Shown in pieces: positions 7,866 through 42,957 of a DNA stretch of 42,957 bases (the stretch's first letter is position 1; each line of letters starts with the position of its first letter). The stretch comes from a virus (Duplodnaviria > Caudoviricetes). Location of the stretch: IMG/VR virus record IMGVR_UViG_3300028586_000339, positions 1 to 42,957 of that record. One strand, written 5' to 3'. The translations under genes were made by a program, and so were the position numbers. The notes below the pieces were generated by a model that saw only the letters and a program-made list of their open reading frames with translations, was not told the origin of the DNA and did not search any database.

Positions 7866-7963
7866 GGGGGTAACGCGGGGGTAAACGTCTAAGCCTCACC
7901 GGCCGCAGCCCGCGCAATTCCGCAGCTTTGGCTCCGACGCGGCGGAGGGGTTGTCCGCCGCTA
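7866..7963 (+). repeat. att-like site A (arm pair plus palindromic core)
   Basis: GGGGGTA at 7866 and 7877; core ACGCGGCGGA-GGGGTTG-TCCGCCGCTA at 7937-7963. Confidence 0.8.
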
Positions 7964-8023
7964 TGGGTTCAACGATAAACATAAGCGGTAAAGATACGGA
8001 TCAGCCGGGGGGAAGCACATCCG

Positions 8024-9127
8024 ATGATTACAACGCCAAGGCTGCGAGACGCGCGAATCGACATCATTCGCGGGGCCGCGATGCTAACGATCGTGATCAA
8101 CCACATAACGGAGGCGTTCAAACTTTACGGTTTCACGGGTCTCGAAATCGTAACGCCTACGGCTCTTGGCTATTCTTCGTCGGCGTCTCTTTTTGTAATC
8201 ATGTCTGGATACATGGTTGGACTAGTTTACATAAAGAAGCCCAAACCCTCTCAGGCGTTATTAAGACGGGCCCTGTCACTGTACTGGCATAATGCCCTGC
8301 TTCTAACTGCTTTATTTCCAATTATTATTTTAATGAGTGAAATAGAAGCAGCTAAATGGCGCGCTGATCTTATAATTACCGCTCCAATGACAGCGCTGAT
8401 TACATTTTTTGGCTTATTGAAGGCTCCGGTCCTTCTTGACGTGCTTCAAATGTACGTAATCTTCATGCTTCTCACACCTGCCGCCTTGTGGGTGCATCGT
8501 AAGTCGCCATTGGCTCTAGCAGCCGTTTCTATAACGCTATGGATACTCTGTCAGCTCGCAACGGCGACGCACCTGCTTGATCCAGATCGCGTTCGGTCAA
8601 CCTTCAATCCTGTCGCATGGCAGCTATTATTCTTTATCCCACTAATCCTCGGCGCAAAGCGCATCCATGAAAGTATTTTTGATTTACTGGAGAACCGAAA
8701 ATGGATCACATTCGTCATCATGTCTATTGCAGCCATTTTTGCGATGGCTAAGATTTACCATGTCGAAGAAGCAATTCATGGAAGCAGAATACTTATGAGC
8801 AAGGGAAACCTTGGCGCACTCCGCATAGTGCACGCTGTGGTGATTATTACACTCTACTGTGGACTTCTAACGCTTAGCAAACGTATCCCGAAGCTTCCTC
8901 CGATTCGAGCATTGGCCTGTTTGGGACGGCAAACTTTAAAGTGCTATGTTTTTAGTGCTTTCCTAACGTACCTACTGGCGGTGGCTTGGGACCGCCTGGA
9001 TGGTGGGAACGAGGTCTACTATGCGACGGTAGCTTTGGCGGTGATGGTGACCTTTATAGCTGCAGCGATCTTCGATGCGCGATCTGCACGGCAAGTAAAA
9101 CCTGCGCTTTCCTTAGTGGCACATTGA
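8024..9127 (+). CDS. opgC: OpgC-family membrane acyltransferase (acyltransferase-3 superfamily), cargo gene
   Basis: RDARIDIIRG...INHI...TPTALGYSSSASLFVIMSGYMVGLVY, LDVLQMY, FNPVAWQLLF, LGRQTL; multi-TM; visibly AT-richer than its flanks. Confidence 0.85.
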   Translation: MITTPRLRDARIDIIRGAAMLTIVINHITEAFKLYGFTGLEIVTPTALGYSSSASLFVIMSGYMVGLVYIKKPKPSQALLRRALSLYWHNALLLTALFPIIILMSEIEAAKWRADLIITAPMTALITFFGLLKAPVLLDVLQMYVIFMLLTPAALWVHRKSPLALAAVSITLWILCQLATATHLLDPDRVRSTFNPVAWQLLFFIPLILGAKRIHESIFDLLENRKWITFVIMSIAAIFAMAKIYHVEEAIHGSRILMSKGNLGALRIVHAVVIITLYCGLLTLSKRIPKLPPIRALACLGRQTLKCYVFSAFLTYLLAVAWDRLDGGNEVYYATVALAVMVTFIAAAIFDARSARQVKPALSLVAH

Positions 9128-9203
9128 CTCCGTCGCGGTCTCTAGGACAAGAAGGACCGCCGGCTGCCCGTGGCGTTCAGACGCTCCGACTTTCCGAAAC
9201 CAG

Positions 9204-9302
9204 GGGGGTAAGATGGGGGTACGGGTGCGGCGTCCCACTTTGACCTTCTGGCGATTTCGCCCGAGAAACTTATAAAAACGGCAGAGGGTATCTCCGTCGC
9301 GC
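9204..9302 (+). repeat. att-like site B (arm pair plus core)
   Basis: GGGGGTA at 9204 and 9215; core AAACGGCAGA-GGGTATC-TCCGTCGCGC at 9276-9302. Confidence 0.72.
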
Positions 9303-9375
9303 GGCTGCACAGTAGCCCGCCGCATCTCGGTCCTCTTTCTAAACTTTGGCGCGGTGAGGACGTCATCTCACATCC

Positions 9376-9645
9376 CTATTGTGATGCCGTTCCGGACAGC
9401 CTCCGTTCGATCTGAGTGAGCAGGTGACTACCGGCTTGCGTCAATGCAATCAGACACGGATCGTCCCATCCATATTTGAACGGAAAGGTCTCCCCGCTAA
9501 ACGCTGCCCGGGCGTAGGATGCGCGCGTCTCGCAGGTCGCCTCGCCGAATAGGTGGGTAATTGCCTGCCGCACAGCCTCGATATCATCGGCTGCAAATTC
9601 CAACGATGATTTGCCATCAGGAGACAAGAGCAGGCTCACAGCCAT
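9376..9645 (-). CDS. Hypothetical cargo protein (89 aa)
   Basis: Protein-like ORF (…GETFPFKYGWDDPCLIALTQAGSHLL…) between site B and mucR. Confidence 0.6.
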   Translation of the reverse strand: MAVSLLLSPDGKSSLEFAADDIEAVRQAITHLFGEATCETRASYARAAFSGETFPFKYGWDDPCLIALTQAGSHLLTQIERRLSGTASQ

Positions 9646-9741
9646 AATTGCTTACGAAATGTATCTGAACATGATCATGGGCTTGTTTTGTACCTTATTA
9701 TCCGCCACTTGAGCACACTACGCTGCTTTGGAGAATAATGA

Positions 9742-10284
9742 ATGCCTGATCAGATCGACAATGTCGAGCTTGCGACAGAACTTACTATTGCTTGGCTTGG
9801 AAATAATAATACTCGCGTATCGGCTGATGATGTGCCTGTATTCCTTAGGCAGATGCATAGCGCCCTTAGCCAGTTGTCGCAGCCGGAACCTCTTACTGGG
9901 GCTGCCGAGGCACCTTCCGTAGATTACACTCCGGCAGTATCCGCTAAAAAGTCTCTGTCGAACCCTGATTTCATTATTTCGCTGATCGACGGCAAACCCT
10001 ATAAGGCGCTTCGTCGTCACCTATCGACCAACGGCTTGACCGAGGCCGAGTATCGCAAGCGCTACAACCTCAAGGCTGACTACCCGATGGTCGCTCCAGC
10101 GTATTCGGAAGTCCGACGCGCAATGGCTCATAAAATCGGTCTCGGGCGTAAAGCCAAAACGGCCGTGGAAGCCGTGGCCAAACCCGTTAAGGCGGTTGTC
10201 AAGAAAGCCGGCAAGACGGTCAGCGAAGCGAAAAGCATGGTACAAGATCATCTTGGCGGGCATTCGGAAGAAGGCGCAAACTGA
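9742..10284 (+). CDS. mucR: Ros/MucR-family regulator (H-NS-like silencer), cargo gene
   Basis: ELATELTIAWLGN, PAVSAKKSL, IISLIDGKPYKALRRHL, YRKRYNLKADYPMVAPAYSEVRRAMAHKIGLGRK. Confidence 0.92.
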   Translation: MPDQIDNVELATELTIAWLGNNNTRVSADDVPVFLRQMHSALSQLSQPEPLTGAAEAPSVDYTPAVSAKKSLSNPDFIISLIDGKPYKALRRHLSTNGLTEAEYRKRYNLKADYPMVAPAYSEVRRAMAHKIGLGRKAKTAVEAVAKPVKAVVKKAGKTVSEAKSMVQDHLGGHSEEGAN

Positions 10285-10318
10285 TCCGCTTAGCGCCTGC
10301 TGAATTCGGCAGTACACA

Positions 10319-10416
10319 AGGGGTACCCCGGGGGTATGGACGAAATCGCTGTAGTGAGGTGCAGCGGTAAATCTCAGCTGATTGATCGAACGCGGCGGAG
10401 GGGTTCTCCGCCGTGT
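10319..10416 (+). repeat. att-like site C (arm pair plus core)
   Basis: AGGGGTA at 10319 and GGGGGTA at 10330; core ACGCGGCGGA-GGGGTTC-TCCGCCGTGT at 10390-10416. Confidence 0.8.
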
Positions 10417-10570
10417 TTGAAGCCCAAAGACCGCAGCGAGCGAGCCGGGCGGTTAACGACTCCGCCCGGCTCTGACTGCCCACCTTCGGAGGGGATCGGC
10501 AGCTGCCCCTTCATAGCCCATCCTCGTGCTTTCAGTTACCGAAACAGGCGCCGGCGTGCGCTTTCCTACT

Positions 10571-10585
10571 GTTCCTGCTTCGTTC
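10571..10585. promoter_or_regulatory. Alphaproteobacterial LexA (SOS) box
   Basis: GTTC-CTGCTTC-GTTC, just upstream of ATG 10598. Confidence 0.75.
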
Positions 10586-10597
10586 TACATCGCCGGC

Positions 10598-10900
10598 ATG
10601 GGCATGAACCAGCGATTCGAGACGCTTTGGGACGTCACCAGACGCGATGCGAATTTGCATGTTCAGTGCTCTTTCCATTGCGCGAACGAAAGCGTGGTGG
10701 ACGCAAAGCGCCTGGAGCGCTGGTATCGCATGCACCTCTGGGACACCCACATTTCGCGGCTCAGTAAGCATCTGCGCTGCTCCAAATGCCTCGGCCGGCC
10801 TGAGCGCATCAAGGTCACGCATCAGACGCCGAATGGGCCGAGCTGGGGACCGCAGACGGAAAAAGACTGGGTTCTGGCCGTGCGAAGGCTGCGCGGATGA
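10598..10900 (+). CDS. SOS-box-preceded Zn-ribbon-like phage protein
   Basis: LHVQCSFHC...HLRCSKC Cys pairs; start ATG 10598 or 10604. Confidence 0.7.
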   Translation: MGMNQRFETLWDVTRRDANLHVQCSFHCANESVVDAKRLERWYRMHLWDTHISRLSKHLRCSKCLGRPERIKVTHQTPNGPSWGPQTEKDWVLAVRRLRG

Positions 10901-11319
10901 ACCGTGGCACAGTGGCGGCAGGCCGAAATATTTGGTACGATCCGGCCATGCAGGGGGCCGCTCCAGCGCCACTCCGCCGAGTGGAAGCGCTGGCCTATAT
11001 CGTAGAACGGATTTCACGATCCGGTACCGCTCCGTCGTATGGCGAGATTGCGGACGCTATGCGTCCGACCGTACATATCTCGCGGGCCAGGCAGTTCGTC
11101 GACCAGCTCGTTCGAGAAGGATACCTAGAGCGCCGGCCGGCTTCACGCCGCGGTATTGCCATCAGAGATGTAGTCCGGTGTCGTCACGCGATCGAACAAG
11201 CGCTCGGCATGCTTGGCTATAAGCACGCTGCCCCGCTGGGTGAACTTATACAGGCCCCCTCTACATTTGGTCAGCTGCACGCCATCCCTCCGTTTGAGTA
11301 CCTCCCCGACGTAGATTAG
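10897..11319 (+). CDS. LexA DNA-binding-domain protein without peptidase domain
   Basis: RRVEALAYIVERISRSGTAPSYGEIADAM...VDQLVREGYLERRPASRRGI; start may be ATG 10948. Confidence 0.75.
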   Translation: MNRGTVAAGRNIWYDPAMQGAAPAPLRRVEALAYIVERISRSGTAPSYGEIADAMRPTVHISRARQFVDQLVREGYLERRPASRRGIAIRDVVRCRHAIEQALGMLGYKHAAPLGELIQAPSTFGQLHAIPPFEYLPDVD

Positions 11320-11330
11320 CCGGGGGTGAC

Positions 11331-11513
11331 ATGATCAACGTTCCAAGGGCGCTCGCCGCGCTCCACGCTATCGAGGGCGAGCAGGTGGTGCTCTCCAAGG
11401 CGCAGTACAGCGAGATCATGACAGAGGTCGCTCGCGGCAATGCAGCGCGCATGACCCTGACCAACGCCCGCTCGATTATGAGCGCCGGCGCGCTTGCGGC
11501 AGGAATTAGCTGA
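11331..11513 (+). CDS. Hypothetical phage protein
   Basis: GGGGTG RBS; coupled to the next gene. Confidence 0.55.
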   Translation: MINVPRALAALHAIEGEQVVLSKAQYSEIMTEVARGNAARMTLTNARSIMSAGALAAGIS

Positions 11514-12151
11514 TGGGCGCCGCTTCACATCCCGCTGCGATCGACGTCGGCGGCCAGCCGTACCTCCGCGACGCCAAGGGCGCGCTCGTGCCGATCGGCG
11601 CGATCAAGGCGGCCGACCTCCTCATGGATGAGCTGGTTCGGAATCTCACCGCGGAAGCCGACGATCTATCGGCGCAAATCGCTGCTTTCAAGCGAAGGGT
11701 CTATGAGCAGGTCGGCGCGCACCAGGCGCTGATCGCGCAGGAGTACGGAGCAAAGATCGGCGGCAGCAAAGGCAACATCACGCTCAGCGCCTTCGACGCC
11801 ACCATGCGCGTATCGGTTTCGGTGGCCGACCAGATTGAGTTCGGGCCCGAGATCCAGGCTGCGAAGTCGCTCATCGATGAGTGCCTGAACGAGTGGGCCG
11901 CAACAAGTGGCGTGCAATTGCGGGCGTTGGTGAACCGCGTCTTCTCGGTCGATCAGGAAGGTACGATCAATCGTGCCGAGGTTTTCATGTTGCTACGCGT
12001 GGCGATCGAAGACCCGAAGTGGCTGAGGGCTATGGAAGCGATCCGCGAAAGCATGCGCGTGACCGGTTCTCGATCCTACGTGCGATTTCATCGCCGCAAC
12101 GCCAGCGATGCACCGTGGCAGGCGGTCACGCTGGACATGGCCTCGGCATGA
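11513..12151 (+). CDS. DUF3164-family phage protein
   Basis: YLRDAKGALVP...DLLMDELV...EYGAKIGGSKGNITL...FGPEIQAAKSLIDECL...SYVRF. Confidence 0.85.
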   Translation: MGAASHPAAIDVGGQPYLRDAKGALVPIGAIKAADLLMDELVRNLTAEADDLSAQIAAFKRRVYEQVGAHQALIAQEYGAKIGGSKGNITLSAFDATMRVSVSVADQIEFGPEIQAAKSLIDECLNEWAATSGVQLRALVNRVFSVDQEGTINRAEVFMLLRVAIEDPKWLRAMEAIRESMRVTGSRSYVRFHRRNASDAPWQAVTLDMASA

Positions 12152-12825
12152 GTCGCTGGATCATCCTGCGGACGAGCGGCGGTCACACGCTGCCGCTGGC
12201 TCAATCGCTCAACGATGTCGGGCTTGAGGCTTGGACTCCCGCGCGAACGTTGCGCCGTTACGTTCGGGCGAACACACCTTCGGGCAAGCGCGCCCTTGAA
12301 AGCCAGATCCCGATCCTGCCTACCTTCGTCTTCGCTCGCGAGACGTTCCTGAGCGATTTGATCAACGCCTCAAACTCGGATCGCACTCCGCATCCAAAGT
12401 TCACCGTCTTCATCGTCGACGGTCGCGTGCCGCAAATCCATGAAACGGAGATCTCCGGCCTGCGAGCCGAGGAGGCTGAAGCGGCCGCAACGATCGACGC
12501 TATGCATGCGGCCGAAAGCCACGCAGCCGCTGAGAAGATCCGGATCGCGGCCATTAAGCATGCAGATGCTCGCCGACGAGCCGAGCGGGAGCACGAGCGC
12601 GAACAGCGGGCCGCGTTGCGGCGAGCGCCTATCGGACTGGCGGGCGGCACTGAGGTCGAGGTGACCGACATGCCCGCGTTGGTCGGCATCCGTGGCGTGT
12701 TCGAACGCTCCAACGGTCCGTACGCGCACGTGCGCTTCGGCACCCGTTCATGGAAAATTGAGGGTTGGCGGGTACTGCCAGCTCCTCTAAACGACAACGG
12801 CGCTCTTCGGAGCTCCGCCGCCTAA
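12148..12825 (+). CDS. NusG-like (NGN plus KOW) late antiterminator
   Basis: MSRWIILRT...GLEAWTP...PILPTFVF and C-terminal KOW-like GTEVEVTDMPALVGIRGVF; lies before the packaging genes. Confidence 0.75.
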   Translation: MSRWIILRTSGGHTLPLAQSLNDVGLEAWTPARTLRRYVRANTPSGKRALESQIPILPTFVFARETFLSDLINASNSDRTPHPKFTVFIVDGRVPQIHETEISGLRAEEAEAAATIDAMHAAESHAAAEKIRIAAIKHADARRRAEREHEREQRAALRRAPIGLAGGTEVEVTDMPALVGIRGVFERSNGPYAHVRFGTRSWKIEGWRVLPAPLNDNGALRSSAA

Positions 12826-12934
12826 GCGGCTTTCGGGAAAGACGATCTGGAGCCTCGGCTCTTGCGCGCCCGTTACTAGTCCACGCGATGCGTCGCGGAG
12901 GATGTCGTAAGCATATCCAGCATCGGAGGTGGCG

Positions 12935-13171
12935 ATGGCCGCACCAACCGCCCCCTCGCATGGCACGCGCCTGCGCGACCTTGGCGATTACCTGTTTGTG
13001 CTCGCCGAACGCTATGAAACCTCGGAGCGTGATCTGACAGTGCGCCGGGGCGTGCATGACGACCTCGAGCGTACCGCCGGCGAGATCCGCGCGATCGTAC
13101 GCGGCACAGCAGCCAAGGCAGTAAATCCCCCGCTCGAGACCAGCAAGGACGGTCGCCGGTGCGTCTGGTGA
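12935..13171 (+). CDS. Hypothetical phage protein
   Basis: GGAGG RBS; helical 78 aa ORF. Confidence 0.55.
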   Translation: MAAPTAPSHGTRLRDLGDYLFVLAERYETSERDLTVRRGVHDDLERTAGEIRAIVRGTAAKAVNPPLETSKDGRRCVW

Positions 13172-13439
13172 GATCCTTCTCAGCCGAGACCAATCACCCG
13201 AACCCTGTTCCTAAGACCGCACTCGTGTTCGCCGCTACCCTGTTACTCGCTGCCTGCACGCAGCCTGTCGACCGTTGCGCCAGCACAGCCAACCCGGCCG
13301 AGTGCCGAGCCGGGCTTCAACCGAAAGTGACTGCGTTCTGATTCGAGCGCGACGCAACTACGAAGCGAAGTGATCGCCGCCATCGAGAATGCGACGATCC
13401 GAGTGCCGAAGGGCCGATCGAGTGCCTTCTGACCTCGAA

Positions 13440-13545
13440 ATGGCACGCGGGTTGCCACGGCCCGGCCCGACCCCCCCCCTACCTTTGGGTCCTCCGCCGA
13501 AAGATCCGTATGCGGGGGGCAAAGGCGCCACGGTCCGCTAGCTAC
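13440..13545. other. Probable cos/packaging initiation region
   Basis: Non-coding stretch with a C run and GGGTCCTCC...TGCGGGGGGC immediately upstream of the small terminase, where lambda-like phages carry cos. Confidence 0.4.
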
Positions 13546-13585
13546 AGGCATTTTGCGTACTTCATCATCATTGGGGCAAAAACCC

Positions 13586-14227
13586 ATGGATTTGGCGGGT
13601 TACACGCCCACACTCAGTGAAGTGGCGGGCCTGTTCGGCAAGTCCAGCCGCTGGATTTCGGATCTCCGCGCCAAAGGCGAGATGCCAGGCGATGGCGCCA
13701 CGCTCGGCGAATTTGTCGCCGCGCTTTCCAGCTACAGCGCCGCCCAGGCGGGCGGGCTCGGCGGCAAGAAGATCGATCAGCACAAGGCGCGCCTCGCCGA
13801 GGCGAAGGCCGAAGAAGCTGAAATGAAAAACGCGCAGACGCGGCGCGAACTTCTGCCTCGGCCGCTGGTCACCCTTGCGGTGCAGGGCGCGTTCGCCCGC
13901 GTCCGCGCCAAGTTGCTCGCGATGCCGAGCAAGTGCGCGCCGGCGATCGCCGGCATGAAGTCAGCGGTGGCGATCCAGGAGCGGTTGACGGAGCTCGTGC
14001 ATGAAGCGCTCGCCGAGCTCGCCACGACCATCGTCAACGCCGAGCCGGCAAGCGACGATCGCGATTCATCTGGTAGCGAGCCAGGAGCTGGCGGAGACAG
14101 CGCGGGAATGGTGGCCGGTGTTCACGCCGCCGCCGCGCCTGACGGTGAGCCAGTGGGCGGACCAGCACCGGAAGCTAAGCCCCGAAGCAAGCGCCGAGCC
14201 CGGGCAGTGGAACACAAGTCGGGCTGA
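13586..14227 (+). CDS. Terminase small subunit (Nu1-like)
   Basis: N-terminal wHTH TLSEVAGLFGKSSRWISDL; coiled coil HKARLAEAKAEEAEMKNAQTRRELL; overlaps the large subunit. Confidence 0.8.
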   Translation: MDLAGYTPTLSEVAGLFGKSSRWISDLRAKGEMPGDGATLGEFVAALSSYSAAQAGGLGGKKIDQHKARLAEAKAEEAEMKNAQTRRELLPRPLVTLAVQGAFARVRAKLLAMPSKCAPAIAGMKSAVAIQERLTELVHEALAELATTIVNAEPASDDRDSSGSEPGAGGDSAGMVAGVHAAAAPDGEPVGGPAPEAKPRSKRRARAVEHKSG

Positions 14228-18275: not shown

Positions 18276-18280
18276 TCCCC

Positions 18281-20299: not shown

Positions 20300-20386
20300 G
20301 CCGACCGGCTCCCCTGCCTACCACCATCGCTATGCAGATCGGGCGGCCCTTGTGCTGCCCGGTCCCGCGTCATCCGGAGAACCACG

Positions 20387-20713: not shown

Positions 20714-20715
20714 GC

Positions 20716-21036: not shown

Positions 21037-21037
21037 C

Positions 21038-21745: not shown

Positions 21746-21747
21746 TT

Positions 21748-28398: not shown

Positions 28399-28401
28399 TC
28401 C

Positions 28402-32451: not shown

Positions 32452-32460
32452 GGAAACCAC

Positions 32461-32997
32461 ATGGCAGATCCGACGAACGCAGCGCTGGCGCTGCGGCAGG
32501 TAGCGCTCGAAGATCAGATGAGCGCCTGGCTCGATCAGGAATACGCCTTCGCCTTCGGCACCGTGAACGGTGGCCCGAACGGCGACGGCACCTTTCCCTT
32601 CACCAACCTCAAGACCGGCGAGACGGTGCTGCGCAAGTGCGCGGCGCAGGTGCAATATGAAGCATCGACGCCGAAGATGCTCAAGAAGACCGGCCTCGGC
32701 CCGTTCACGATGCTGGCATCGGAAATCAACATCGTCTGGCTGATCGGCAACGGCACCGCGCCGGCGAACATCAGCGTGCGCCTTCCAGATGCGCCGTTCG
32801 GGTCGCAGTACATGTTCATCCAGTACGGCAGCGGCCGGCTGATCTTCTCGGCCGTCGCCGGCACGATCGTCAACCGGCAGGGCTTTACGCGATCGGCCGG
32901 TAAGAGCGCGCTCACTCTCGCGATCTGCACGGCCGTCGATGCAAACGGCCACTCCGAATGGACGCTGGGGGGCGACATGTCGCTGACCAACACATGA
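32461..32997 (+). CDS. Tail fibre-associated protein
   Basis: AAGGA RBS; GTVNGGPNGDGTFPFT and C-terminal WTLGGD. Confidence 0.6.
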   Translation: MADPTNAALALRQVALEDQMSAWLDQEYAFAFGTVNGGPNGDGTFPFTNLKTGETVLRKCAAQVQYEASTPKMLKKTGLGPFTMLASEINIVWLIGNGTAPANISVRLPDAPFGSQYMFIQYGSGRLIFSAVAGTIVNRQGFTRSAGKSALTLAICTAVDANGHSEWTLGGDMSLTNT

Positions 32998-35318
32998 CCT
33001 TCGTTCCGGCAATCCTCGCCGCGCTCAAGCCGATCGACACCACCTATTCGATCTGGAACTTCACGGCGCCGCGCGGCACCTTCGACGAAGGTTCGACAAT
33101 GTCGTTCCAGATGACCTGCGGCAACGCGCTACCCGGCGTGTCGAAGATCGTCTGGAAGCTCGCGGGCGGCAAGGCCGGCGATGGTGCCTGGGCGTTCCCG
33201 TGGTCGTTCTTGTGGACGCAGGCGGTGCAGGGTCGCGGTATCACCATCACCAGCCTCAAAGGCAGCGACTACGGCGCTACGATCGCGCTGCTGTTCGAGA
33301 TCGGCGACGGCTATGATGGTCTGCCCGTCGTCATCACCAACACGGTGCTCAACAACAAGGTGACGGAAGTTCAGGGCGGCACGCCGGGGCAGTTGCAGAT
33401 CACGCAGCAGCTGGTGTTTCCCGCCGGCGCGTCTGGGCCTACGCCACTTGGCAACGGCTCGCCGTTCTTTATCCGCGACACCAGCAAGACGCCGCCCGGA
33501 ACGCCGACCTATCACCTGATGTCGGTCGCGGCCGATGGCGTGACAGCGGTTCTCTCCGTCAACGAAGGCGACACTTTCTACCTGAAGCCCGTCACCGAAA
33601 ACATGATCCCGGGCACGATCTTCGAGATCGCCGCGGTGAACGTCGGCCAGTACGCGATCGCCGGCGGGTTTCAGGCGGCGATCAAGGCCGCTGCCGAGGC
33701 GGCAGGATGCAAGTGTTCGACCGCCTATGCCGATCGCGGCAACTACAATGGCGGCGTCATCACCACCACGGCCGCCTATTCAGATGCGAAACCGATCCTC
33801 ATTCCGATCACCATTACCAAGGATCATGTGACGACCGGCGCGCGCCAGCTCGACTTCCTGACCTTCATGAAGGCGGACGGCGATCCCAACAACAAGACCG
33901 TCAACTACGGCGGCACCATTACTATCCAGATCGCCGACACGTCGGTCGAGCCGACGCCGAGCTACTGGCGGCTGACCGCGACGCTCGCCAACGGGCAAGC
34001 GACCTACGGCGTCAATAGCCCAACCGGAGCCTCGGTCGCGTCTGTCACGCTGGCATCCACCGGCACCGTGCCAGCAGGGTTCGAGGCTGCGCTGGCCGCT
34101 GCTGTCGCTGCTACGCCGGGTCTGACCTATTCGAACGGCGTCATCACCTCGGACGCGACCTGGAGCGGCGTGCTCAACTGGTCGGTCGCCGCGCCAGCGA
34201 CGGGCAAGCATAGCCTGCGGCTCATCAACCCGACCAACGACAGCTTTATTCTGGTCGGCGATGCGGCGATCTACTTCGCTGCGCCAGCGCTGCCGGCACG
34301 GCCGGCGTTTGTCACCGGCGTCAACATGTCGGGCGGTGACTTCGGCGGCACCGTTCGGCCTGGCGCGTATGGCACGAATTACCGCTACCCGGCCTATCCA
34401 GACAATCCCGACCCTGCGCTACAGCATCAGGAGATCGACTACTACGTGAGCAAGAAGGCCGGCATCATCCGGCTGCCGGTGCTGTGGGAGCGTATTCAGG
34501 ACGCATTGTTCGGCCCGCTCTCGTCACCCGGCACGCTTGCCACCTGGTACGGCCGGCTCGACATGGATCGCATCGACGACTTCATCAACTATGCGACTTC
34601 ACGCGGCCTGATCGTCCTGCTCGACGTCCACAACTACATCTACGGCTTCGGTTCGCGTGTCGGCTTCAACAGCAACACGCCGACCACCGCCCTTGTCGAT
34701 CTCTGGGAGAAGCTCGCCAACCGCTACGCCGGCAACCCGCGCGTGTGGTTCGGGATCATGAACGAGCCGAACGGGATCGCGGCGAACGAGATCCGCGACA
34801 TCATGGAGTGGGTGCTCAACTCCATTCGTGGCCGCACCAATGCGCTCAACCATGTGCTCGTCACCGGCGGTCTATATTCGCGCGCCAGTGCATGGGTGAC
34901 CAACGGTTTCGCGGCGGCTTTCGAAGGCTTTGCCGATCCGGCCAAGAACTTCGGCATTGAGCTGCACTCGTACCTCGACTCCGATCAAAAGGGTGAGGCT
35001 GGCACGTGCGACCTCAACTCCTACGCACGCGCTCAAGCTGCAATCACTTGGGCACGAGCGCGCGGCATTGAGCTCCACATCGGCGAGTTCAATGGCGGCG
35101 ACCCGAGCGTTGCTGGTCAGGGGCAATGCGGCATCGAAGTGCCGAAGATGTGCCAGTTCCTGTTCGACAACCGCGACGTGGTGAAAAGCTGGACCGCATG
35201 GGGTGGCGGCGCCGGCTGGAAGCAGGATTACATCTTCCGGCTCACCCCGCTCGATCTGAACCACCCGGTCGACACGCCGCAGCTGGCGGCCCTGCTGCCG
35301 TACTTCACGACGATCTGA
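32994..35318 (+). CDS. Putative tail spike with C-terminal GH5 endoglucanase domain
   Basis: From about 34311: GVNMSGGDFG, IRLPVLWERIQ, LLDVHNY, FGIMNEP (acid/base Glu), ELHSYLDSD, HIGEF (nucleophile Glu), WTAWGGG. Confidence 0.85.
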   Translation: MTFVPAILAALKPIDTTYSIWNFTAPRGTFDEGSTMSFQMTCGNALPGVSKIVWKLAGGKAGDGAWAFPWSFLWTQAVQGRGITITSLKGSDYGATIALLFEIGDGYDGLPVVITNTVLNNKVTEVQGGTPGQLQITQQLVFPAGASGPTPLGNGSPFFIRDTSKTPPGTPTYHLMSVAADGVTAVLSVNEGDTFYLKPVTENMIPGTIFEIAAVNVGQYAIAGGFQAAIKAAAEAAGCKCSTAYADRGNYNGGVITTTAAYSDAKPILIPITITKDHVTTGARQLDFLTFMKADGDPNNKTVNYGGTITIQIADTSVEPTPSYWRLTATLANGQATYGVNSPTGASVASVTLASTGTVPAGFEAALAAAVAATPGLTYSNGVITSDATWSGVLNWSVAAPATGKHSLRLINPTNDSFILVGDAAIYFAAPALPARPAFVTGVNMSGGDFGGTVRPGAYGTNYRYPAYPDNPDPALQHQEIDYYVSKKAGIIRLPVLWERIQDALFGPLSSPGTLATWYGRLDMDRIDDFINYATSRGLIVLLDVHNYIYGFGSRVGFNSNTPTTALVDLWEKLANRYAGNPRVWFGIMNEPNGIAANEIRDIMEWVLNSIRGRTNALNHVLVTGGLYSRASAWVTNGFAAAFEGFADPAKNFGIELHSYLDSDQKGEAGTCDLNSYARAQAAITWARARGIELHIGEFNGGDPSVAGQGQCGIEVPKMCQFLFDNRDVVKSWTAWGGGAGWKQDYIFRLTPLDLNHPVDTPQLAALLPYFTTI

Positions 35319-35350
35319 GCACCGCCGCGACAGCGGCCGGAGACCACCAC

Positions 35351-35632: not shown

Positions 35633-35642
35633 GAGAAACACG

Positions 35643-36155: not shown

Positions 36156-36167
36156 AGGAGAACACCT

Positions 36168-36629: not shown

Positions 36630-36685
36630 TCGCCGTCGAGCGCTCGCGCCTGCTGCTGCCATGCTGAAAACCTCCGGAGAATACC

Positions 36686-38734
36686 ATGAAGAAGATCCTG
36701 CTCTGGGATATGCGCTTTCCGAAGCGTGATCCGATCCGCCTCAACGTCGCCGACACCATCGCATCGGCAATCGTGCGCTCGGGCGTAGGCGCGGCAGCAG
36801 ATCCGGCGGACGCCGGCGCGCTATCCACTGGTAGCGCGCTCGATCCGACCATGTTGACCGAGGTCGTCCTTCAGCATGGTGCGGCCAACAATATGACCGC
36901 CCGGGTTTTCCTGCCCTACAGCGTGGTGCTGGTCGGCGCGGCTGCGGGCATGCTCGCGTCCATCGGCACGCCTATCGCCGGGCTGCCGGCCCCGTTGCCG
37001 ACGGTTACGCTCTCCGCGTCGATCTCGAAGGCCGAAGGCAATAGCGGCGCGAACCTCTACACCTATACAGTCACGCGATCGGCAACCGCCGGCGCGATCT
37101 CGGTGCCTTGGTCGTTCGCAGCTGGCACCACCAGCGCTGACGACTTCACCGGTGGTTCCTACCCGGCCGGCAGTGCGGTCGCCCTCGCAGATGGCCAAGC
37201 CAGCGGCACGTTCGCGGTGAGCGTCAACGGCGACACCGTCGTCGAGGCGGACGAGCTGTTCACCGTGACGATCTCGCCGCCGGCTGGCTACTCGGCCGGT
37301 GCGAGCTTGAGTGCGACGGGCACCATCCTGAATGACGATGCAGCTGCCACGCCACAGCTGACGGCTACGCCAGCATCGAAGACGATCGCCGCTAACTCCC
37401 CCTCCGGCACGCTCCTGTTCGCGATCGGCAACGTACCCGCAGGCGTAACGCCGACTGTCAGCCCGAACGATGGTCGCTTTGCCGTCGCGGGCGACGCCAC
37501 GAACGGCTGGAAAGTTGTTACGGGTCTTTCGGCGCTATCAGCCGGGTCTGTGAGCGTAACAGCCGTAGCTGCAGGAGCAACGAGCGTCGCCGTGGCCGTG
37601 ACCATCTCGGCCGTGACGTTGCCGAAGCTGTCGGCGGGCATCGCCCGCGTCAAAGCCGGCACCGGTCGTGCCGTCGTCGCCATGATCGGCGACAGCGTAA
37701 CGGATGGATGGGGCGGCGGTGCAACAACCGGCACAGCGACCGGCACGACACCAAGCGTCAGCCCGAACTTCAAGCGTGCCAATAGCTATCCATCGCAGCT
37801 TGCCGCTTCGTATACTGCGGCAGGCGTCCCTTCGCGATCTGATGCGTTTATCTCAGGAGTCACGAAGTCCGAGGCAATCGCTGATTTGCTTTCGGCTTAT
37901 CCGAACATGACCGCAGGAACCGGTTGGTCCGTTTCCAACATCGCCAGCCTTGGTGGAGGACTGTTGACTTGTTCCAGTTCAGGAACCGGAGCGCTGACTT
38001 TCCAGCCGCTGTTCACTGCTGATACCTTCGACATTATCGTTACGGGCTTCTCAGGCTTAGGACAGTTCACAGTAACCGATGTTGCCAGCGGCACTATATT
38101 AGCAACAATCGATGAAACGGATGTTACGCAAGGTATCAAGCAAGGTACGAGTGCGGCACGTATCGTCCCTGTAACACGATCCGCTCACACGACCGATCCA
38201 ATTTCGATCCAGCGCATTTCGGGTGGGGCGCTATTCATCATCGCAATCATTCCGCGCGACAGCACGTCTCCGCGCCTTGAATTTCTTAACATGGGTTATC
38301 CCGGATCGAAAACTAACGATTGGGTTACGACCGCTGATAATTCCGCATGGGCACCGATTTTTGCGCTTGGCCTGCTCAACGGGTATATTGATGCGTTCCA
38401 GATTGAACTAGGCCCGAATGATGCAAACGGGTCTGTTGCAGCTTCGACCTATCAGACTAATCTTCAAACTCTCGCTACTAAGCTATCCAGCTACGGTGAC
38501 GGCACGTTAGTAAAGACACACCCGGCGAATCCAACCACAAACAGTTACAACTTACCATCAGCATATCTGTCTGCGATTGATACCGTGCAGGCGTCGCTAA
38601 ACAGCAACCCGGCGCTCGATTTTAACTCACTGTCTTACGTTACCAGCGACTATTACGATAGCATCCATTTGGCACAGCCGGGATATGGTAAGGAAGCATC
38701 AGCATGGAAGGCGTACACAGACGCCAAGGTCTAA
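36686..38734 (+). CDS. Calx-beta plus SGNH/GDSL esterase protein, probably virion-associated
   Basis: Calx-beta (AEGNSG...YTVTRS...VNGDTVVEADELFTVTIS...ATGTILNDD); SGNH blocks IGDSVTDG, NMGYPG, LGPND, DSIH. Confidence 0.8.
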   Translation: MKKILLWDMRFPKRDPIRLNVADTIASAIVRSGVGAAADPADAGALSTGSALDPTMLTEVVLQHGAANNMTARVFLPYSVVLVGAAAGMLASIGTPIAGLPAPLPTVTLSASISKAEGNSGANLYTYTVTRSATAGAISVPWSFAAGTTSADDFTGGSYPAGSAVALADGQASGTFAVSVNGDTVVEADELFTVTISPPAGYSAGASLSATGTILNDDAAATPQLTATPASKTIAANSPSGTLLFAIGNVPAGVTPTVSPNDGRFAVAGDATNGWKVVTGLSALSAGSVSVTAVAAGATSVAVAVTISAVTLPKLSAGIARVKAGTGRAVVAMIGDSVTDGWGGGATTGTATGTTPSVSPNFKRANSYPSQLAASYTAAGVPSRSDAFISGVTKSEAIADLLSAYPNMTAGTGWSVSNIASLGGGLLTCSSSGTGALTFQPLFTADTFDIIVTGFSGLGQFTVTDVASGTILATIDETDVTQGIKQGTSAARIVPVTRSAHTTDPISIQRISGGALFIIAIIPRDSTSPRLEFLNMGYPGSKTNDWVTTADNSAWAPIFALGLLNGYIDAFQIELGPNDANGSVAASTYQTNLQTLATKLSSYGDGTLVKTHPANPTTNSYNLPSAYLSAIDTVQASLNSNPALDFNSLSYVTSDYYDSIHLAQPGYGKEASAWKAYTDAKV

Positions 38735-38737
38735 TGG

Positions 38738-38944
38738 TCAGGGTACGGCCTTGTTACCCGCGCAGTCGCAGCAGATCCACGACCACTCTGGTTCGGCCGC
38801 AGCGGCGTGAACGCCAACTACAGGGACGCCGCACTCACTGCAGCGTCCCTCGGCGCGCCACGCCTCCCGTTGCACATCACCGGCTCGCATTTTGTCGAGC
38901 ATAGTTCGAAACGGGAGCAGCAGGGCCTCTAGGAATGCTTTCAT
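38738..38944 (-). CDS. Small Cys-motif hypothetical protein
   Basis: CSECG...CCDC. Confidence 0.45.
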   Translation of the reverse strand: MKAFLEALLLPFRTMLDKMRAGDVQREAWRAEGRCSECGVPVVGVHAAAAEPEWSWICCDCAGNKAVP

Positions 38945-39104
38945 GACGCATCGACCTTAGATCGGTGGTTCCGGGATCCGAACGGTGCCCGCAGCCACGT
39001 GCGGACCCGCGTAGCTCGCGGTAAGTCGAGAGCCGCGCAGACCTATGCAGTAGCGGTTCAATGCTCGCAAGGTCGAGCCGCATCCTCAATCTTTGAAACA
39101 GCCA

Positions 39105-39125
39105 CCCTGCTTCGGCGGGGCTTTT
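39105..39125 (+). terminator. Rho-independent terminator
   Basis: CCCTGC-TTCG-GCGGGG followed by CTTTT. Confidence 0.55.
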
Positions 39126-39142
39126 AGCGTGAGGTCATTCTG

Positions 39143-39436
39143 ATGCGAACCATCTACTTCGATGACCTGCGCCTCGTCGCCACGCCGATCCTTCCCGGAT
39201 CTGTCGCCGTTCGCATGCATCGAAAAGACGAGGCTGCCTACTTCGCCAACATCATCGCATCACCGCTTGCTGAGGGTCGCGAGCTCTACCTATCAAGCCA
39301 CCTGTCAACGGTGGGTACACTGTCCCACCGCAAGTGGCTTACTGCCGCTGCCGAGTTCTACCCCGACTTGACAGCGGTGCTGTTCGAACGTCACGGTGCA
39401 GACGGTAAATTTACGAACCACAGGCTGGAATTATGA
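39143..39436 (+). CDS. Hypothetical protein
   Basis: GAGG RBS; 97 aa protein-like ORF. Confidence 0.6.
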   Translation: MRTIYFDDLRLVATPILPGSVAVRMHRKDEAAYFANIIASPLAEGRELYLSSHLSTVGTLSHRKWLTAAAEFYPDLTAVLFERHGADGKFTNHRLEL

Positions 39437-39570
39437 ACCGTCGCCGGTCCGATCTCGGCCTTCTTTTGATTGCAGCTACGATGGTGGTCGGCTCGCTTAT
39501 CTGGGCCTGGCACGAGAGGCGCGTCGAGAACCGCCGGCCGCCGGTTGAGCACATCAACACCGCACATTGA
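39433..39570 (+). CDS. Small single-TM protein (45 aa)
   Basis: Manual translation MNRRRSDLGLLLIAATMVVGSLIWAWHERR...; ATGA coupling to the upstream ORF. Confidence 0.45.
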   Translation: MNRRRSDLGLLLIAATMVVGSLIWAWHERRVENRRPPVEHINTAH

Positions 39571-39939
39571 AGACGCTCTCGACGGGCGGTTCGGTCGCTG
39601 GCATAGCTAAGCCGTTCGGTCATCCCTAGCCGGAAGGTTGAACCCCCGCGCGCGCGGTTATCGAGGTCACCGGTTCGCCGGGTGGCCTGCGAAATAGAAG
39701 ACCCTTCGGGGGAATACGCGGGGCGCAGTCGCCTCGATCTGCGCGGCTAGCCGCCCGGTACCAGGCGGCGAAGCTGCCTGGGTACTGACCCCGATATTCC
39801 CCCGAAGCCACTCCCCAGTTCAGCGCCGCTGGCGCCCCAAAGATCCCGCGATCACTTGGTCGCGGCACCGCCGATCACATCGATCGGCGGCCATACCGCG
39901 CGTTCTAGTCGGCGCGCCTTCCCTCCACAGAAGGACATT

Positions 39940-40731
39940 ATGACCGGCTCCATCGTCGTTAGAACCCCTGCGCCTTATCTCGGCGGCAAGCGCAACCTGT
40001 CCCGCCATCTGGTCGGCCTGATCGGCGAGACCCCGCACCGTACCTATGTCGAGCCGTTCGTCGGCATGGGTGGCATCTTCCTTAAACGTCCGGCCGCCGC
40101 GCCCGTCGAGGTCATCAACGATCTGTCGCGCGACGTCGCGACCTTGTTCCGGATCCTCCAGCGCCACTACGAGGCGTTCATGGACACGCTGAAGTGGCAG
40201 CTCAGCAGCCGCGCGGACTTCGAACGGCTGCTCGCCACCAACGCCGATACGCTGACGGACCTCGAACGCGCTGCGCGCTTCCTGTACCTTCAGCAGCTGT
40301 CGTTCGGAGGCAAGGTCACCGGCCGTAACTTCGGCGTCGACAAGCGGGCGCCAGCGCGCTTCGACGTCGCCAAGCTTCGCGAGAAGCTACCGGAGATCCA
40401 CGAACGCCTCGCCGGTGTGACGATCGAGTGCCTGTCCTACGCTGACGTGATCCGCCGCTATGACTCGGCCGAGACGCTGTTCTACCTCGATCCGCCATAT
40501 TGGAACTGCGAGAAGGACTATGGCGACGGCTTCGAGCGTGCCGACTTCGAGCGCCTGGCTGACCAGCTGGGGGGGATCGCCGGCAAGTTCATCCTGTCGA
40601 TCAACGATACGCCTGGCGCCCGAGCTGTGTTTGGCCGCTTTAACCTTTCGGACATCGAGACGAGCTATACAGTCGGCTCGGCAAGCGCCGGCGCGGGGAA
40701 GCGCGTCGGCGAACTCATCGTCCGAAATTGA
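39940..40731 (+). CDS. Orphan DNA adenine methyltransferase (D12/Dam class)
   Basis: PYLGGKRNL, YVEPFVGMGGI, EVIND, FYLDPPY; AAGGA RBS. Confidence 0.93.
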   Translation: MTGSIVVRTPAPYLGGKRNLSRHLVGLIGETPHRTYVEPFVGMGGIFLKRPAAAPVEVINDLSRDVATLFRILQRHYEAFMDTLKWQLSSRADFERLLATNADTLTDLERAARFLYLQQLSFGGKVTGRNFGVDKRAPARFDVAKLREKLPEIHERLAGVTIECLSYADVIRRYDSAETLFYLDPPYWNCEKDYGDGFERADFERLADQLGGIAGKFILSINDTPGARAVFGRFNLSDIETSYTVGSASAGAGKRVGELIVRN

Positions 40732-40739
40732 GGAGCGGT

Positions 40740-40838
40740 GGGGGTATCGGCTGGGGTAAGCCCCTGGCCGATACCGCTGGAATACCGCACAAAAGCGCCA
40801 TTTTCGACAACACGCGGCGGAGCAGTCCTCCGCCGCGC
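40740..40838 (+). repeat. att-like site D (arm pair plus core)
   Basis: GGGGGTA at 40740 and TGGGGTA at 40752; core ACGCGGCGGA-GCAGTCC-TCCGCCGCGC at 40812-40838. Confidence 0.8.
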
Positions 40839-40934
40839 CCACCAGTTGATTCCTCTACGCATCCCCGTCAAACAGAACCGACGAAGGGGCATCTCATTAC
40901 AGCAGCAGCCTCGCCGCTAGATTGGAGATGGACG

Positions 40935-41171
40935 ATGTCCCACGCATGGAATGACGCAATCCAGGAGTTCGCGGCGACGTCAGCCGCGCTAAACGCCCGC
41001 GCGTTGGCACGGGCGGGCTTGCTCACCGAAGCTGAGCGGAACAACATGCTAGTTCTGCTTGCCGCAGCTGAGAAGGCTGCACGCACTCCCGATCAAATTG
41101 CGATCGCCTTTTCAATCCGTCACATACTCAGCGCTTTGGTAACTTCGAAGGAACACTCGCCCACCTCGTGA
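40935..41171 (+). CDS. Small helical protein between cores D and E
   Basis: GGAG RBS; 78 aa; its stop abuts core E. Confidence 0.6.
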   Translation: MSHAWNDAIQEFAATSAALNARALARAGLLTEAERNNMLVLLAAAEKAARTPDQIAIAFSIRHILSALVTSKEHSPTS

Positions 41172-41198
41172 ACGCGGCGGAGCATTCCTCCGCCGCGT
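41172..41198. repeat. Core-only site E
   Basis: ACGCGGCGGA-GCATTCC-TCCGCCGCGT, perfect inverted repeat; 24 of 25 bp identical to core D over 40813-40837. Confidence 0.8.
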
Positions 41199-41435
41199 GA
41201 CTGCGGGATTTCGGCCGTGGCTGGCATCAAACAGAACGGCGTGGCATCATGCTGTCGCAGAAATCCTGCCAAATTTCCTCCATCCATGCCTCCAGCTCGC
41301 TGCCCGAATTCTGCTCGGTTGGGCGGTGGTTATGTTGGGTGGCACTTCCACAGATCGGACAAGTCGAAGCGCGTTGCTCCTCAGGCTCGCTGCCTTCCTC
41401 GGTATCGGCCACTCGGCTTGCCCCCCCAGGCAGTG

Positions 41436-41461
41436 ACGCAGCGAGGGGTTCATCGCCGCGT
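41436..41461. repeat. Degenerate core-only site F
   Basis: ACGCAGCGA-GGGGTTC-ATCGCCGCGT; centre identical to core C. Confidence 0.55.
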
Positions 41462-41653
41462 ACGAATCGCAAACTACAAATTCTGGTAACTCGCAGCGAC
41501 TAGGGAGAATCCCCTAGCCGCGAACGCTTCCGACGTAGATCTCGGTTCCGATCACGGCGGCGATCCGCACCCACTTCATCGGCTTTTGTCGATCGTCCAC
41601 GATACGCAAACACCGTTGTCGATCGCCGATTGCCGTTCCACGATACACAAAGC

Positions 41654-41680
41654 ACGCGGCGGAGACTTCCTCCGTCGCGT
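41654..41680. repeat. Core-only site G
   Basis: ACGCGGCGGA-GACTTCC-TCCGTCGCGT. Confidence 0.78.
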
Positions 41681-41686
41681 CTGCTG

Positions 41687-41872
41687 CTATCCCACAAATG
41701 GCATTTCAACGTGACCCAGCGTCTCTCGCTTCAGCGCGACCATGCGCGCAGCGTGATATGCTGCTTTCCGAAAATGCATTTCGCGCCCGGCGTCGTTCGT
41801 CTCCGTGGCAGCCAATTCGCATTCGTACGCTTCAAGAAAGCGCAGGCGATCGATCAGTTCTTTGTTCGGCAT
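41687..41872 (-). CDS. Small hypothetical protein ending beside core G
   Basis: GAGGGGG RBS; MPNKELIDRLRFLEAYECELAA...; its stop is 6 bp from core G. Confidence 0.55.
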   Translation of the reverse strand: MPNKELIDRLRFLEAYECELAATETNDAGREMHFRKAAYHAARMVALKRETLGHVEMPFVG

Positions 41873-42029
41873 GATATTGGCCCCCTCTGGGTCGATAGCA
41901 TTGAACCTAGTATCTACTTGATTTCAGATAATTCTAACTGCTTCGCCGCTTCGCTGCGACTCTCATCACTTACAACTTACCGAGCTTCGGTAGCTGGTTT
42001 CACCGATCTATTCTTTAACAGAGGTTTGT

Positions 42030-42957
42030 ATGCTGACAAACGCTGCGGTGAAAGCCGCGCGGTCGCGTTCGCGCGCCTACAAGATGTTCGACGAGCGGGG
42101 ACTGCACCTGCACGTTGCCACCAGCGGCCGCGCCACGTGGCGGATCAAGTATCGGCTGGCCGGTGCCGAGCAGCTGCTGACGATCGGCTGTTATCCCGAG
42201 ATCTCGCTCAATGCCGCGCGCCAGCACCTTGACCAGGCGCGCGAGCAGATCGCGCGGGGCATAAAGCCCGCATCGCCGGCGGCGGCCAAGGCAGCGCTGA
42301 TGACCTTCGAACAGGTCGCGCGCTCCTGGCATGCGCGGAAGCAGTCGGGCTGGGCCCAGGCGCATGCGGCCGACGTTCTCGCCAGCCTTGAGCGCGACGT
42401 GTTCGCGCCGATCGGCGCGTTCCCCTGCGACGAGATCAGCGCATCCGACGTGCGCGAGCTCCTGGAAGTCGTCGAGGGGCGTGGTCGGGTCGAGACGGCC
42501 CGCCGGCTGCGCCAGCGCATAGAGGCGATCTTCGCATTCGCGATCTCGCACGATCAGGCCACCGCCAACCCGGCAAAGCCGGTCGCGGCCGCGCTCGCCG
42601 CGGCACCGCGCAAGCGGCGCCAGCCGGCGCTGCTGACGATCGCTGACGCGCGCGAGCTGCTCGCGGCATGCGATCGCGCGGCCGGCCGGCCGATCGTGCG
42701 CCTGGCGTCGCGCTTTCTCGCTTTGACGGCCGTCCGCCTGGACGCGCTGCGCGGCGCGCGCTGGTCGGAGATCGAGGATCTCGACGGGCCGGCGCCGCTG
42801 TGGCGCGTGCCGGCCGCGCGCATGAAGCTCGCCCGGGTGAAGAAGGACGACGCCGCGTTCGATCATCAGGTGCCGCTCGCGCCGGCGGCCGTGGTGATCC
42901 TGCACGCCGCGCGCGCGATCGCCGGCGGCGGCGAGCTGATCTTCCCCGGCGCGCGCG
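42030..42957 (+). CDS. int: P4-family tyrosine integrase with N-terminal arm-binding domain (runs off the right edge; absent from the ORF track)
   Basis: Manual translation MLTNAAVKAARSRSRAYKMFDERGLHLHVATSGRATWRIKYRLAGAEQLLTIGCYPEISLNAAR...TFEQVARSWH...SLERDVF...LALTAVRLDALRGARWSEI...WRVPAARMK...HQVPL. Confidence 0.93.
   Translation, partial: MLTNAAVKAARSRSRAYKMFDERGLHLHVATSGRATWRIKYRLAGAEQLLTIGCYPEISLNAARQHLDQAREQIARGIKPASPAAAKAALMTFEQVARSWHARKQSGWAQAHAADVLASLERDVFAPIGAFPCDEISASDVRELLEVVEGRGRVETARRLRQRIEAIFAFAISHDQATANPAKPVAAALAAAPRKRRQPALLTIADARELLAACDRAAGRPIVRLASRFLALTAVRLDALRGARWSEIEDLDGPAPLWRVPAARMKLARVKKDDAAFDHQVPLAPAAVVILHAARAIAGGGELIFPGAR

Follow-up and report, generated by a model that had tools for sequence, protein, structure and literature searches.

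Internal one-armed att-like sites tied to a P4-type integrase, and their likely role in accessory-gene exchange among sphingomonad prophages

The 42,957-bp stretch of DNA analysed here (the window) is the whole of virus record IMGVR_UViG_3300028586_000339 and contains a lambda-like tailed prophage with terminase, portal, ClpP-capsid, tail, and lysozyme genes. At its right end, on the plus strand, lies the gene of a P4-type tyrosine integrase with an arm-binding domain (int1, 42030..42957, truncated by the contig end; assigned by PF13356, PF22022, and its position in the tree), the relatives of which come mostly from sphingomonads. Upstream of int1, and again in the early region of the prophage, palindromes resembling the cores of integrase attachment (att) sites border cargo genes of low guanine plus cytosine (GC) content. 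Comparison with related prophages suggests that int1 probably recombines these internal, one-armed sites, swapping the DNA to the right of the core and reassorting accessory genes between related phage genomes.

Four of the sites, all on the plus strand, consist of a pair of GGGGGTA direct repeats (the arms) followed by a core, in which two inverted half-sites surround a 7-bp spacer. Site A (7866..7963) has its arms at 7866 and 7877, its core at 7937, and the spacer GGGGTTG; site B (9204..9302), with a partly degenerate core at 9276, has the spacer GGGTATC; and site C (10319..10416, core at 10390) carries GGGGTTC, one mismatch away from A. Site D (40740..40838, core at 40812, spacer GCAGTCC) lies far to the right, close to int1. 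The arm pairs, with a period of 11–12 bp, start at 7866, 9204, 10319, and 40740, that is, 71, 72, 71, and 72 bp 5' of the cores of A–D, and a single mismatch is present in the first arm repeat of C and in the second arm repeat of D. Between D and int1 there are three armless cores with no assigned strand: E (41172..41198), a perfect palindrome with the spacer GCATTCC, one mismatch from D; F (41436..41461), which is degenerate and doubtful, its left arm being 1 bp short and the homologous stretch of the related locus L230 having no core F; and G (41654..41680, spacer GACTTCC), at the right edge of which the homology with L230 stops. A direct repeat, CCACGATAC(G/A)CAAA, with copies 41 bp apart, is located just left of core G (41590-41650) and is partly retained in L230. 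When one mismatch is allowed, five cores fit the pattern on each strand, giving 10 matches where 0.09 would be expected (100 shuffles), and the composite of arms and core occurs four times in the window and not at all in the reversed sequence. Seven palindromes, four of them preceded by plus-strand arm pairs at this spacing, had been described in an earlier note made from the window alone; the arm positions and distances were recovered, and six of the palindromes are clear (7937, 9276, 10390, 40812, 41172, and 41654), the one at 41436 being weak and degenerate.

The stretches between the sites have GC contents of 49%, 53%, and 57%, compared with 66% in the body of the phage. The module between A and B (49% GC) encodes an OpgC-family acyltransferase (8024..9127, plus strand; PF10129), and the one between B and C (53% GC) an 89-residue open reading frame (ORF) with no assigned family (9376-9645, minus strand, ORF call) and a Ros/MucR regulator (9742-10284, plus strand; PF05443). 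To the right of D, an ORF of about 78 residues (40935..41171, plus strand) ends with a stop codon that abuts core E, and its homologue in sequencing run X6 is followed by a degenerate core. It is succeeded by two minus-strand ORFs of 61 residues each: one, with a homologue in L230, ends 28 bp from core E (41227..41412), and the other, an ORF call divergent from int1, ends 6 bp from core G (41687..41872).

Sites of the same design recur in related prophages. Their consensus, about 100 bp overall, comprises a GGGGTA pair, about 54 bp with phased A-tracts, and the core GGCGGA-N7-TCCGCC; in the profile of 80 sites, A/T peaks follow one another every ~10–11 bp between the arms and the core, and there is no conservation to the right of the core. 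This layout is that of one arm of a P4-type att site, with an arm pair, phased A-tracts, and a 10-7-10 core. From the pattern seen across integrase loci, we take the GGGGGTA pair to be the arm-type site of P4-family integrases; no published source for this motif was found in the literature searched. In loci L003, L023, L024, and L025 the distance from arm to core is ~49 bp instead of 71–73 bp; the difference amounts to two helical turns, and is consistent with a phasing requirement.

A core is present within 3 kb 5' of int1 in 80 of 105 int1 loci; if arm pairs are counted as well, 100 loci have one or the other. The control integrase loci, 52 in number and 868 kb in all, have no core. Of the 25 int1 loci in which no core was scored, most have arms and, at the same spacing, a variant palindrome (GACGGA/TCCGTC, TCCGGA/TCCGGA, or CGCGGA/TCCGCG). 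Exact cores were found in 48 of 50 whole prophage records and in none of the reversed controls, and each of five host genomes of 3.9–7.2 Mb contains 2–11 of them. Among 301 genomes of the family, nine carry the armed motif, 13 carry int1, and eight carry both, one of the eight being the centre genome, which was picked for having int1. The two-hotspot layout of the window is also recurrent, with sites near int1 and a further group in the early region; almost all of them point the same way, and as many as eight occur in one record. A single core precedes int1 in 66 of the 80 loci, and two or three in the other 14. These distributions support the assignment of the sites as att-like and tied to the int1 clade, and answer a check proposed in the earlier note, whether the motif co-occurs with this integrase clade in related sphingomonad prophages.

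Comparisons between related prophages show that gene content changes exactly at the cores, which the earlier note had proposed to test. Among 59 alignments that come in from the left and terminate near a core, 57 do so at positions +21 to +30; 16 others run through a core, 13 of them at one intragenic armless match and three at real sites. The right flanks are unrelated in 22 of the 24 close pairs compared. Averaged over these 24 pairs, identity rises from 0.84 in the left flank to 0.94 in the left half-site and 0.95 at the first two spacer positions, falls to 0.74 at positions 3–7, returns to 0.94 over the inner six bases of the right half-site, and drops to 0.28 past the core. In loci L003, L024, and L025 the left 400 bp are 99–100% identical, one base of the spacer or of the right half differs, and the sequences are unrelated from position 23 onward. 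At site D, the homology of the window with five loci (L001, L011, L213, L214, and L215) stops at 40837.

The flanks are also found in new combinations. Among 195 sites, pairs that have the left 52 bp in common share the right 52 bp as well in eight of 61 cases (a count that includes one duplicate record and one false site), whereas 250 bp further upstream, at a position taken as the control, 68 of 95 do so, and 14 site pairs have only the right flank in common. The site at 3904 of L200 combines the left flank of L203 with the right flank of L199, and in L230 an A-type spacer is joined to the right half and flank of C. A contig of a relative in run X6 joins an A-like core to the right flank of C (7961 to 10443), leaving an empty early site, the shorter side of this junction being only 25 bases long. 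In several close pairs int1 is ~86–97% identical and the left flank 95–100%, as would be expected if cargo and int1 entered together by a crossover at the core plus another further to the right. Taken together, the comparisons argue strongly for site-specific exchange at the core. The same repeat, AATGTCC...GGAAAGCGG, opens the right flanks at L199 7934, L203 13666 and 15004, L050 7454, L153 7609, and the early sites of L119; it is presumably a widespread alphaproteobacterial repeat, and it may mark a second cassette family feeding the arrays.

Altogether 186 sites carry 89 different 7-bp spacers, with G at position 1 in 163 and at position 2 in 158. Within a phage, none of 166 spacer pairs is identical (3.5 expected, P=0.03), and 27 of the 166 are one base apart (13.1 expected, P=0.0002), as are A/C and D/E in the window. 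The excess of one-mismatch pairs fits a duplication of sites followed by a locking mutation, or it could instead arise from plain shared ancestry. In L161, compared with L165 and L158, spacers are inverted while both flanks keep their orientation. The outer base pairs of the palindrome covary even within one phage (2.60 vs 2.41 of 4, P=0.0005), which template switching in the palindrome could also produce.

In the tree of 220 non-identical integrases from the collected loci, int1 forms one clade of 105 (FastTree support 0.99). Its active site is intact: every one of the 103 members of full length keeps the residues R, K, H, R, H, and Y. With an N-terminal arm-binding domain, a central core-binding domain (PF13356, PF22022; PDB matches to CP4-like and CPS-53 integrase domains), and the catalytic R-K-H-R-H-Y set, int1 is a tyrosine integrase of the P4 (arm-domain) type. 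A search of annotated phage and plasmid collections at a strict threshold returned no match to it. Immediately 5' of the ATG, 68 of the 85 other P4-type integrases have a GGGG(C/T)A pair, compared with one of 105 int1 genes, and int1 lacks the arrangement of a canonical prophage integration module, namely a terminal integrase, an att core, and a start-proximal arm pair. As an alternative chromosomal integrase int1 was rejected on the strength of 92 of the 105 loci, which have phage marker genes close by, no clear split site being seen. A single promoter-like match near int1 (42039-42010) is weak and at chance level.

A second P4-type integrase, int2, is convergent on int1 a few kb downstream in 60 of the 105 loci (31 of the 47 that have at least 4.5 kb of downstream sequence) and adjoins a tRNA in five. 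Its arm motif is usually GGGGGCA and sometimes GGGGTA. The left end of the prophage in the window (2072..2172, minus strand) has a GGGGGCA arm pair (2154-2172), an A-tract spacer, and, 74 bp away, the core AGCCCTG-TCCACCA, all of which the earlier note had described. The far end of L177, the only one of 36 records in which both prophage ends could be matched, similarly has a GGGGGCA pair, A-tracts, and a 20-bp direct repeat that matches sequence beside int2 and tRNA-Asn, and its arm-to-core geometry is that of the internal sites. Because the left end of the window has the same layout as this L177 end, it is likely the chromosomal att half of int2, with int2 itself located beyond the contig end; an assignment of this end to int1 was dropped in view of that layout and of the int2 arm motif. 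Thus, int1 appears not to be the chromosomal integrase of the prophage, a function apparently performed by int2. The earlier proposal that int1 shuffles genes at two hotspots is sustained in part, as regards the att-like character of the sites, their linkage to int1, and the switch of content at the cores. Chromosomal integration and the left end are better assigned to int2, and the int1-proximal hotspot does not suit a cycle in which circular cassettes enter between a pair of sites.

The system would probably operate as follows. Each site would be a former attP that lost its second arm once int2 had taken over chromosomal integration. The arm domain of int1 would bind the GGGGTA pair, and the enzyme would cut at the edges of the 7-bp spacer, requiring a G-rich start and a near-matching spacer in the partner. 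A crossover would take place between sites on two phage DNAs present in one cell. Its resolution at a second site would move or add a whole module, building the arrays of the early region, whereas resolution by ordinary homologous recombination in or beyond int1 would replace the single cargo between D and the start of int1. New genes would be admitted now and then through cryptic core-like sequences. Recombination between two sites of identical spacer would remove the DNA lying between them, so that a module would persist only after one of the spacers had mutated, and such mutations would stabilise the arrays. Exchange by int1 at these sites is thus likely a pdif-like exchange of modules between phage genomes by way of a repurposed one-armed attP. 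It is also quite possible, and we put it forward tentatively, that the old integrase and one arm of its attP have been domesticated in a temperate-phage lineage into a machine for gene acquisition and shuffling, with capture of new defence, anti-defence, and regulatory genes at core-like sequences, arrays at two hotspots, and lock-in by single-base spacer changes, which would represent a third, independently evolved cassette system besides integrons and pdif modules.

Several observations weigh against exchange of modules by int1. No module bounded by two sites and shared at high identity by two phages was found, and none of 30 loci holding homologues of the window cargo carries a site that could have served as a cryptic donor core. 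Deletion products of a C-by-D reaction were sought in four shortened or rearranged prophage records, none of which is broken at the cores, and neither circle junctions nor same-strain empty sites were seen in assembled contigs of the sequencing runs. Exactly one strict armed site is present in 27 of 37 further records, largely from other lineages, which fits a role in resolution. Core type correlates with int1 (rho 0.29) little better than with int2 (rho 0.24), and the pairs compared at the cores share ancestry and are not phylogenetically independent. The right boundary of the int1-proximal hotspot is the ATG of int1, upstream of which the sequence differs even in close relatives, and no recombination site is found there; a candidate second site at the int1 start, suggested by a minus-strand similarity, CCGCGGCG, was rejected as the conserved start of the protein, unchanged in clades with other cores. 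Finally, the pattern beside int1 is not diagnostic by itself, since cargo at P2/P4 hotspots is likewise exchanged wholesale between conserved flanks and no site-specific step is known there.

Several of these points would be accommodated if int1 and a single site formed a multimer-resolution or regulatory system, with cargo swapped passively by homologous or illegitimate recombination between the conserved site and int1, as at P2/P4 hotspots. Besides the many records with a single armed site and a right boundary that is simply the int1 ATG, this account can draw on loci L052, L144, L146, L147, and L168, where a perfect palindrome with a constant spacer has no cargo, on a replication-initiator-like gene that lies just 3' of int1 in relatives (weak PHROG hits), and on the rapid swapping at P2/P4 hotspots for which the available text of PMC13586616 gives no recombinase. 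It leaves unexplained the second hotspot, where low-GC modules alternate with as many as eight armed sites in direct repeat, the same right flanks behind unrelated left flanks, the spacer differences inside 99–100% identical DNA, and the excess of one-mismatch spacer pairs, and we regard it as rather unlikely; in the single-site lineages a resolvase or regulatory role may be ancestral. A true integron analogue, in which modules excise as one-site circles and reinsert at another core with the relaxed spacer homology of IntDOT, seems distinctly unlikely, even though an armed site of its own follows each early-region module and two or three cores precede int1 in 14 of 80 loci. The int1-proximal cargo is also mostly a single ORF divergent from int1 (in 44 of 60 loci the first cargo ORF runs on the minus strand, and 26 of these 44 have its stop no more than 20 bp from the core), and the conserved first two spacer bases followed by variable ones resemble the 2-bp requirement of IntDOT, as far as it is set out in the accessible part of PMC2817482. 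Such an integron analogue had been proposed in the earlier note, and repeated att-like sites do stand at cargo boundaries; at the int1-proximal hotspot, however, the 66 loci with one core, most of which do contain cargo, have the int1 ATG as the other boundary, and neither a circle junction nor a complete shared cassette was seen, nor a site beside cargo homologues elsewhere.

If the recombinase acting on the sites were int2 or a host enzyme, int1 would be a bystander. The similarity of the int2 arm motif and the failure of core type to track int1 clearly over int2 agree with this, but the absence of sites from the 52 control loci, their near confinement to int1 genomes, and an active site that is invariant in int1 although no att arm lies proximal to the gene make it very improbable. 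Scarcely credible is the idea that the palindromes are repetitive extragenic palindromic (REP)-like repeats or RNA hairpins acting as terminators between convergent genes. Folding does give strong hairpins (z about -4.3 to -5.4) for four of the five cores examined, convergent ORFs flank D and E, and the outer base pairs covary; still, the host genomes hold too few exact copies for a genome-wide repeat, no U-tract terminator was called at D, E, or G, and a REP element or terminator would account neither for the fixed spacing to an integrase-type arm pair nor for the helically phased A-tracts and the strict 7-bp spacer. On these grounds a REP element or intrinsic terminator, which the earlier note had named among the findings that would undo its proposal, was rejected. 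No significant tRNA or Rfam family was detected at the sites or at the left end of the window.

Exchange of modules by int1 may be compared with several known systems. The pdif modules of Acinetobacter Rep_3 plasmids, in the portion of PMC13141974 available, likewise have many tyrosine-recombinase sites around diverse accessory modules, which move by cointegrate formation and resolution, with identity or near-identity of the spacers selecting the reacting sites. They differ in using host XerC/XerD, 6-bp spacers, and alternating orientation, and in being plasmid-borne (PMC13141974, same portion), whereas the int1 sites are prophage-borne, with 7-bp spacers, symmetric GC-rich halves, an arm pair 72 bp off, an orientation common to nearly all of them, and a linked phage integrase with an arm domain. 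Module boundaries do lie at sites in both, and XerC/XerD boxes with a 6-bp spacer in alternating orientation are not found here. The resemblance to integrons, as outlined in the accessible sections of PMC9892861 and PMC8138268, lies in the cargo, which is divergent from the integrase, compact, and low in GC, consists mostly of single ORFs of unknown function whose stops adjoin the site, and includes defence-related genes; integrons also occur in phages, according to the same sections (PMC9892861; PMC8138268). Unlike the simple IntI (class description in the accessible part of PMC8138268), int1 is of the arm-domain P4 type. Its sites are short, perfect, armed 10-7-10 palindromes and not attC or attI by their anatomy, most int1-proximal cargo has one site only, and an array of attC-ended cassettes beside attI is missing.

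The attP, attL, and attR sites of P4/CP4-type elements, exemplified by KplE1 IntS in the part of PMC2951348 that is accessible, share with the int1 system the arm-binding, core-binding, and catalytic domains of the integrase, the paired arm repeats, and the 7-bp core centre. The int1 sites differ from them in being internal, multiple, and one-armed, and int1 in having no arm pair before its ATG and in apparently leaving chromosomal integration to int2. At the P2/P4 defence hotspots, near-identical phages have wholly different cargo at fixed loci (PMC13586616, as far as its text is available), for which homologous or illegitimate recombination is proposed; that text mentions neither a dedicated recombinase nor a repeated att-like site. 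IntDOT of CTnDOT, in the available text of PMC2817482, is an arm-domain tyrosine integrase that needs overlap identity only at the first exchange, in line with the conserved first two bases of the int1-site spacers; it moves a whole conjugative transposon, and the one-mismatch excess at int1 sites suggests that near-identity matters here. GInts, similarly, are tyrosine-recombinase elements with diverse cargo and variable attachment-site sequence, but they move as whole islands with a four-gene gin operon (accessible text of PMC5385486). The int1 system has many internal sites and a single int1 gene in place of ginABCD, the only other integrase nearby being the convergent int2. Judged by its sequence features, the int1-site system is thus most like pdif modules in the way it would work and like integrons in the layout of its cargo, yet it fails the defining tests of both. 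No description of it was found in the open-access literature, subscription journals and supplements being outside the scope of the search.

The cargo is diverse throughout the family. An ORF lies between the first site and int1 in 60 of 87 int1 loci (longest-ORF calls made with no null model), and in 36 of 51 no more than 50 bp separate the start of the last cargo ORF from the int1 ATG; the GC fraction is 0.57 in the cargo and 0.71 in int1. The 94 cargo ORFs fall into 86 families, mostly with no Pfam match, and the hits that were obtained include a CAP12 TIR domain, RelA/SpoT, HicAB, Acb2/Tad1, Lar, PadR, and response regulators. Two of 59 cargo proteins strongly match PADLOC candidate systems. 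In 401 genomes of the genus Sphingomonas the best donor hits for the window cargo are partial or distant (64–80%), with one 100-bp match of 88% to the right of core C. An anti-defence gene with the Acb2/Tad1 hairpin lies directly before int1 in L012 (9742-9972), and a similar stretch is present in L125. L205 has in its early hotspot a cargo stretch that L125 and L126 carry the other way round at their int1-proximal hotspot.

Among the neighbouring genes of the window, an AlpA-family excisionase or regulator (2192..2629, minus strand; PF05930, PHROG excisionase families) lies beside the left end, and a Dam-type DNA adenine methyltransferase (39856..40731, plus strand; PF02086) is the usual left neighbour of site D. 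Relative to int1, the methyltransferase is upstream in 39 of 105 loci and downstream in 25 (L137, L039, L130, L018, and L135, for example). A stretch 5' of it in the window (39677-39767), conserved in relatives, weakly matches Rfam sRNA-Xcc1 (E value 0.003, below the gathering score). Two GTTC-N7-GTTC boxes, presumably the alphaproteobacterial LexA box, precede small divergent ORFs flanking the A–C array (7787-7801 and 10571-10585); being present on both sides, they would place the early hotspot between two likely SOS-controlled genes. A second palindrome with a 7-bp centre, CCGACAGCC-N7-GGC(G/T)GTCGG, occurs 50–750 bp 3' of int1 in L001 (11299-11323) and 30 other loci (31 of 91), in a hairpin-rich stretch at the end of the replication-initiator-like gene, and is possibly an origin or a structured RNA. 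Other window genes encode a tail-region protein with a GH5 cellulase domain (32958-35318), a GDSL-like protein after the lysis genes (36686-38734), and a GapR-like DNA-binding protein (4308-4673).

The feature is real, widespread in sphingomonad prophages, and apparently undescribed. For the way in which temperate phages acquire and exchange accessory genes at fixed hotspots, recent work on P2/P4 phages, in the available text of PMC13586616, names just two candidates, homologous and illegitimate recombination. With an identified enzyme, a delimited site of ~100 bp, and breakpoints resolved to the base, this family opens the question to direct tests. The sites also point to places where new defence and anti-defence genes can be mined, and an integrase that works on one-armed sites, the 7-bp spacers of which can be programmed, could be of use in engineering. 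Phage hotspots usually have no known dedicated enzyme; in this family, int1 likely swaps defence and other cargo there.

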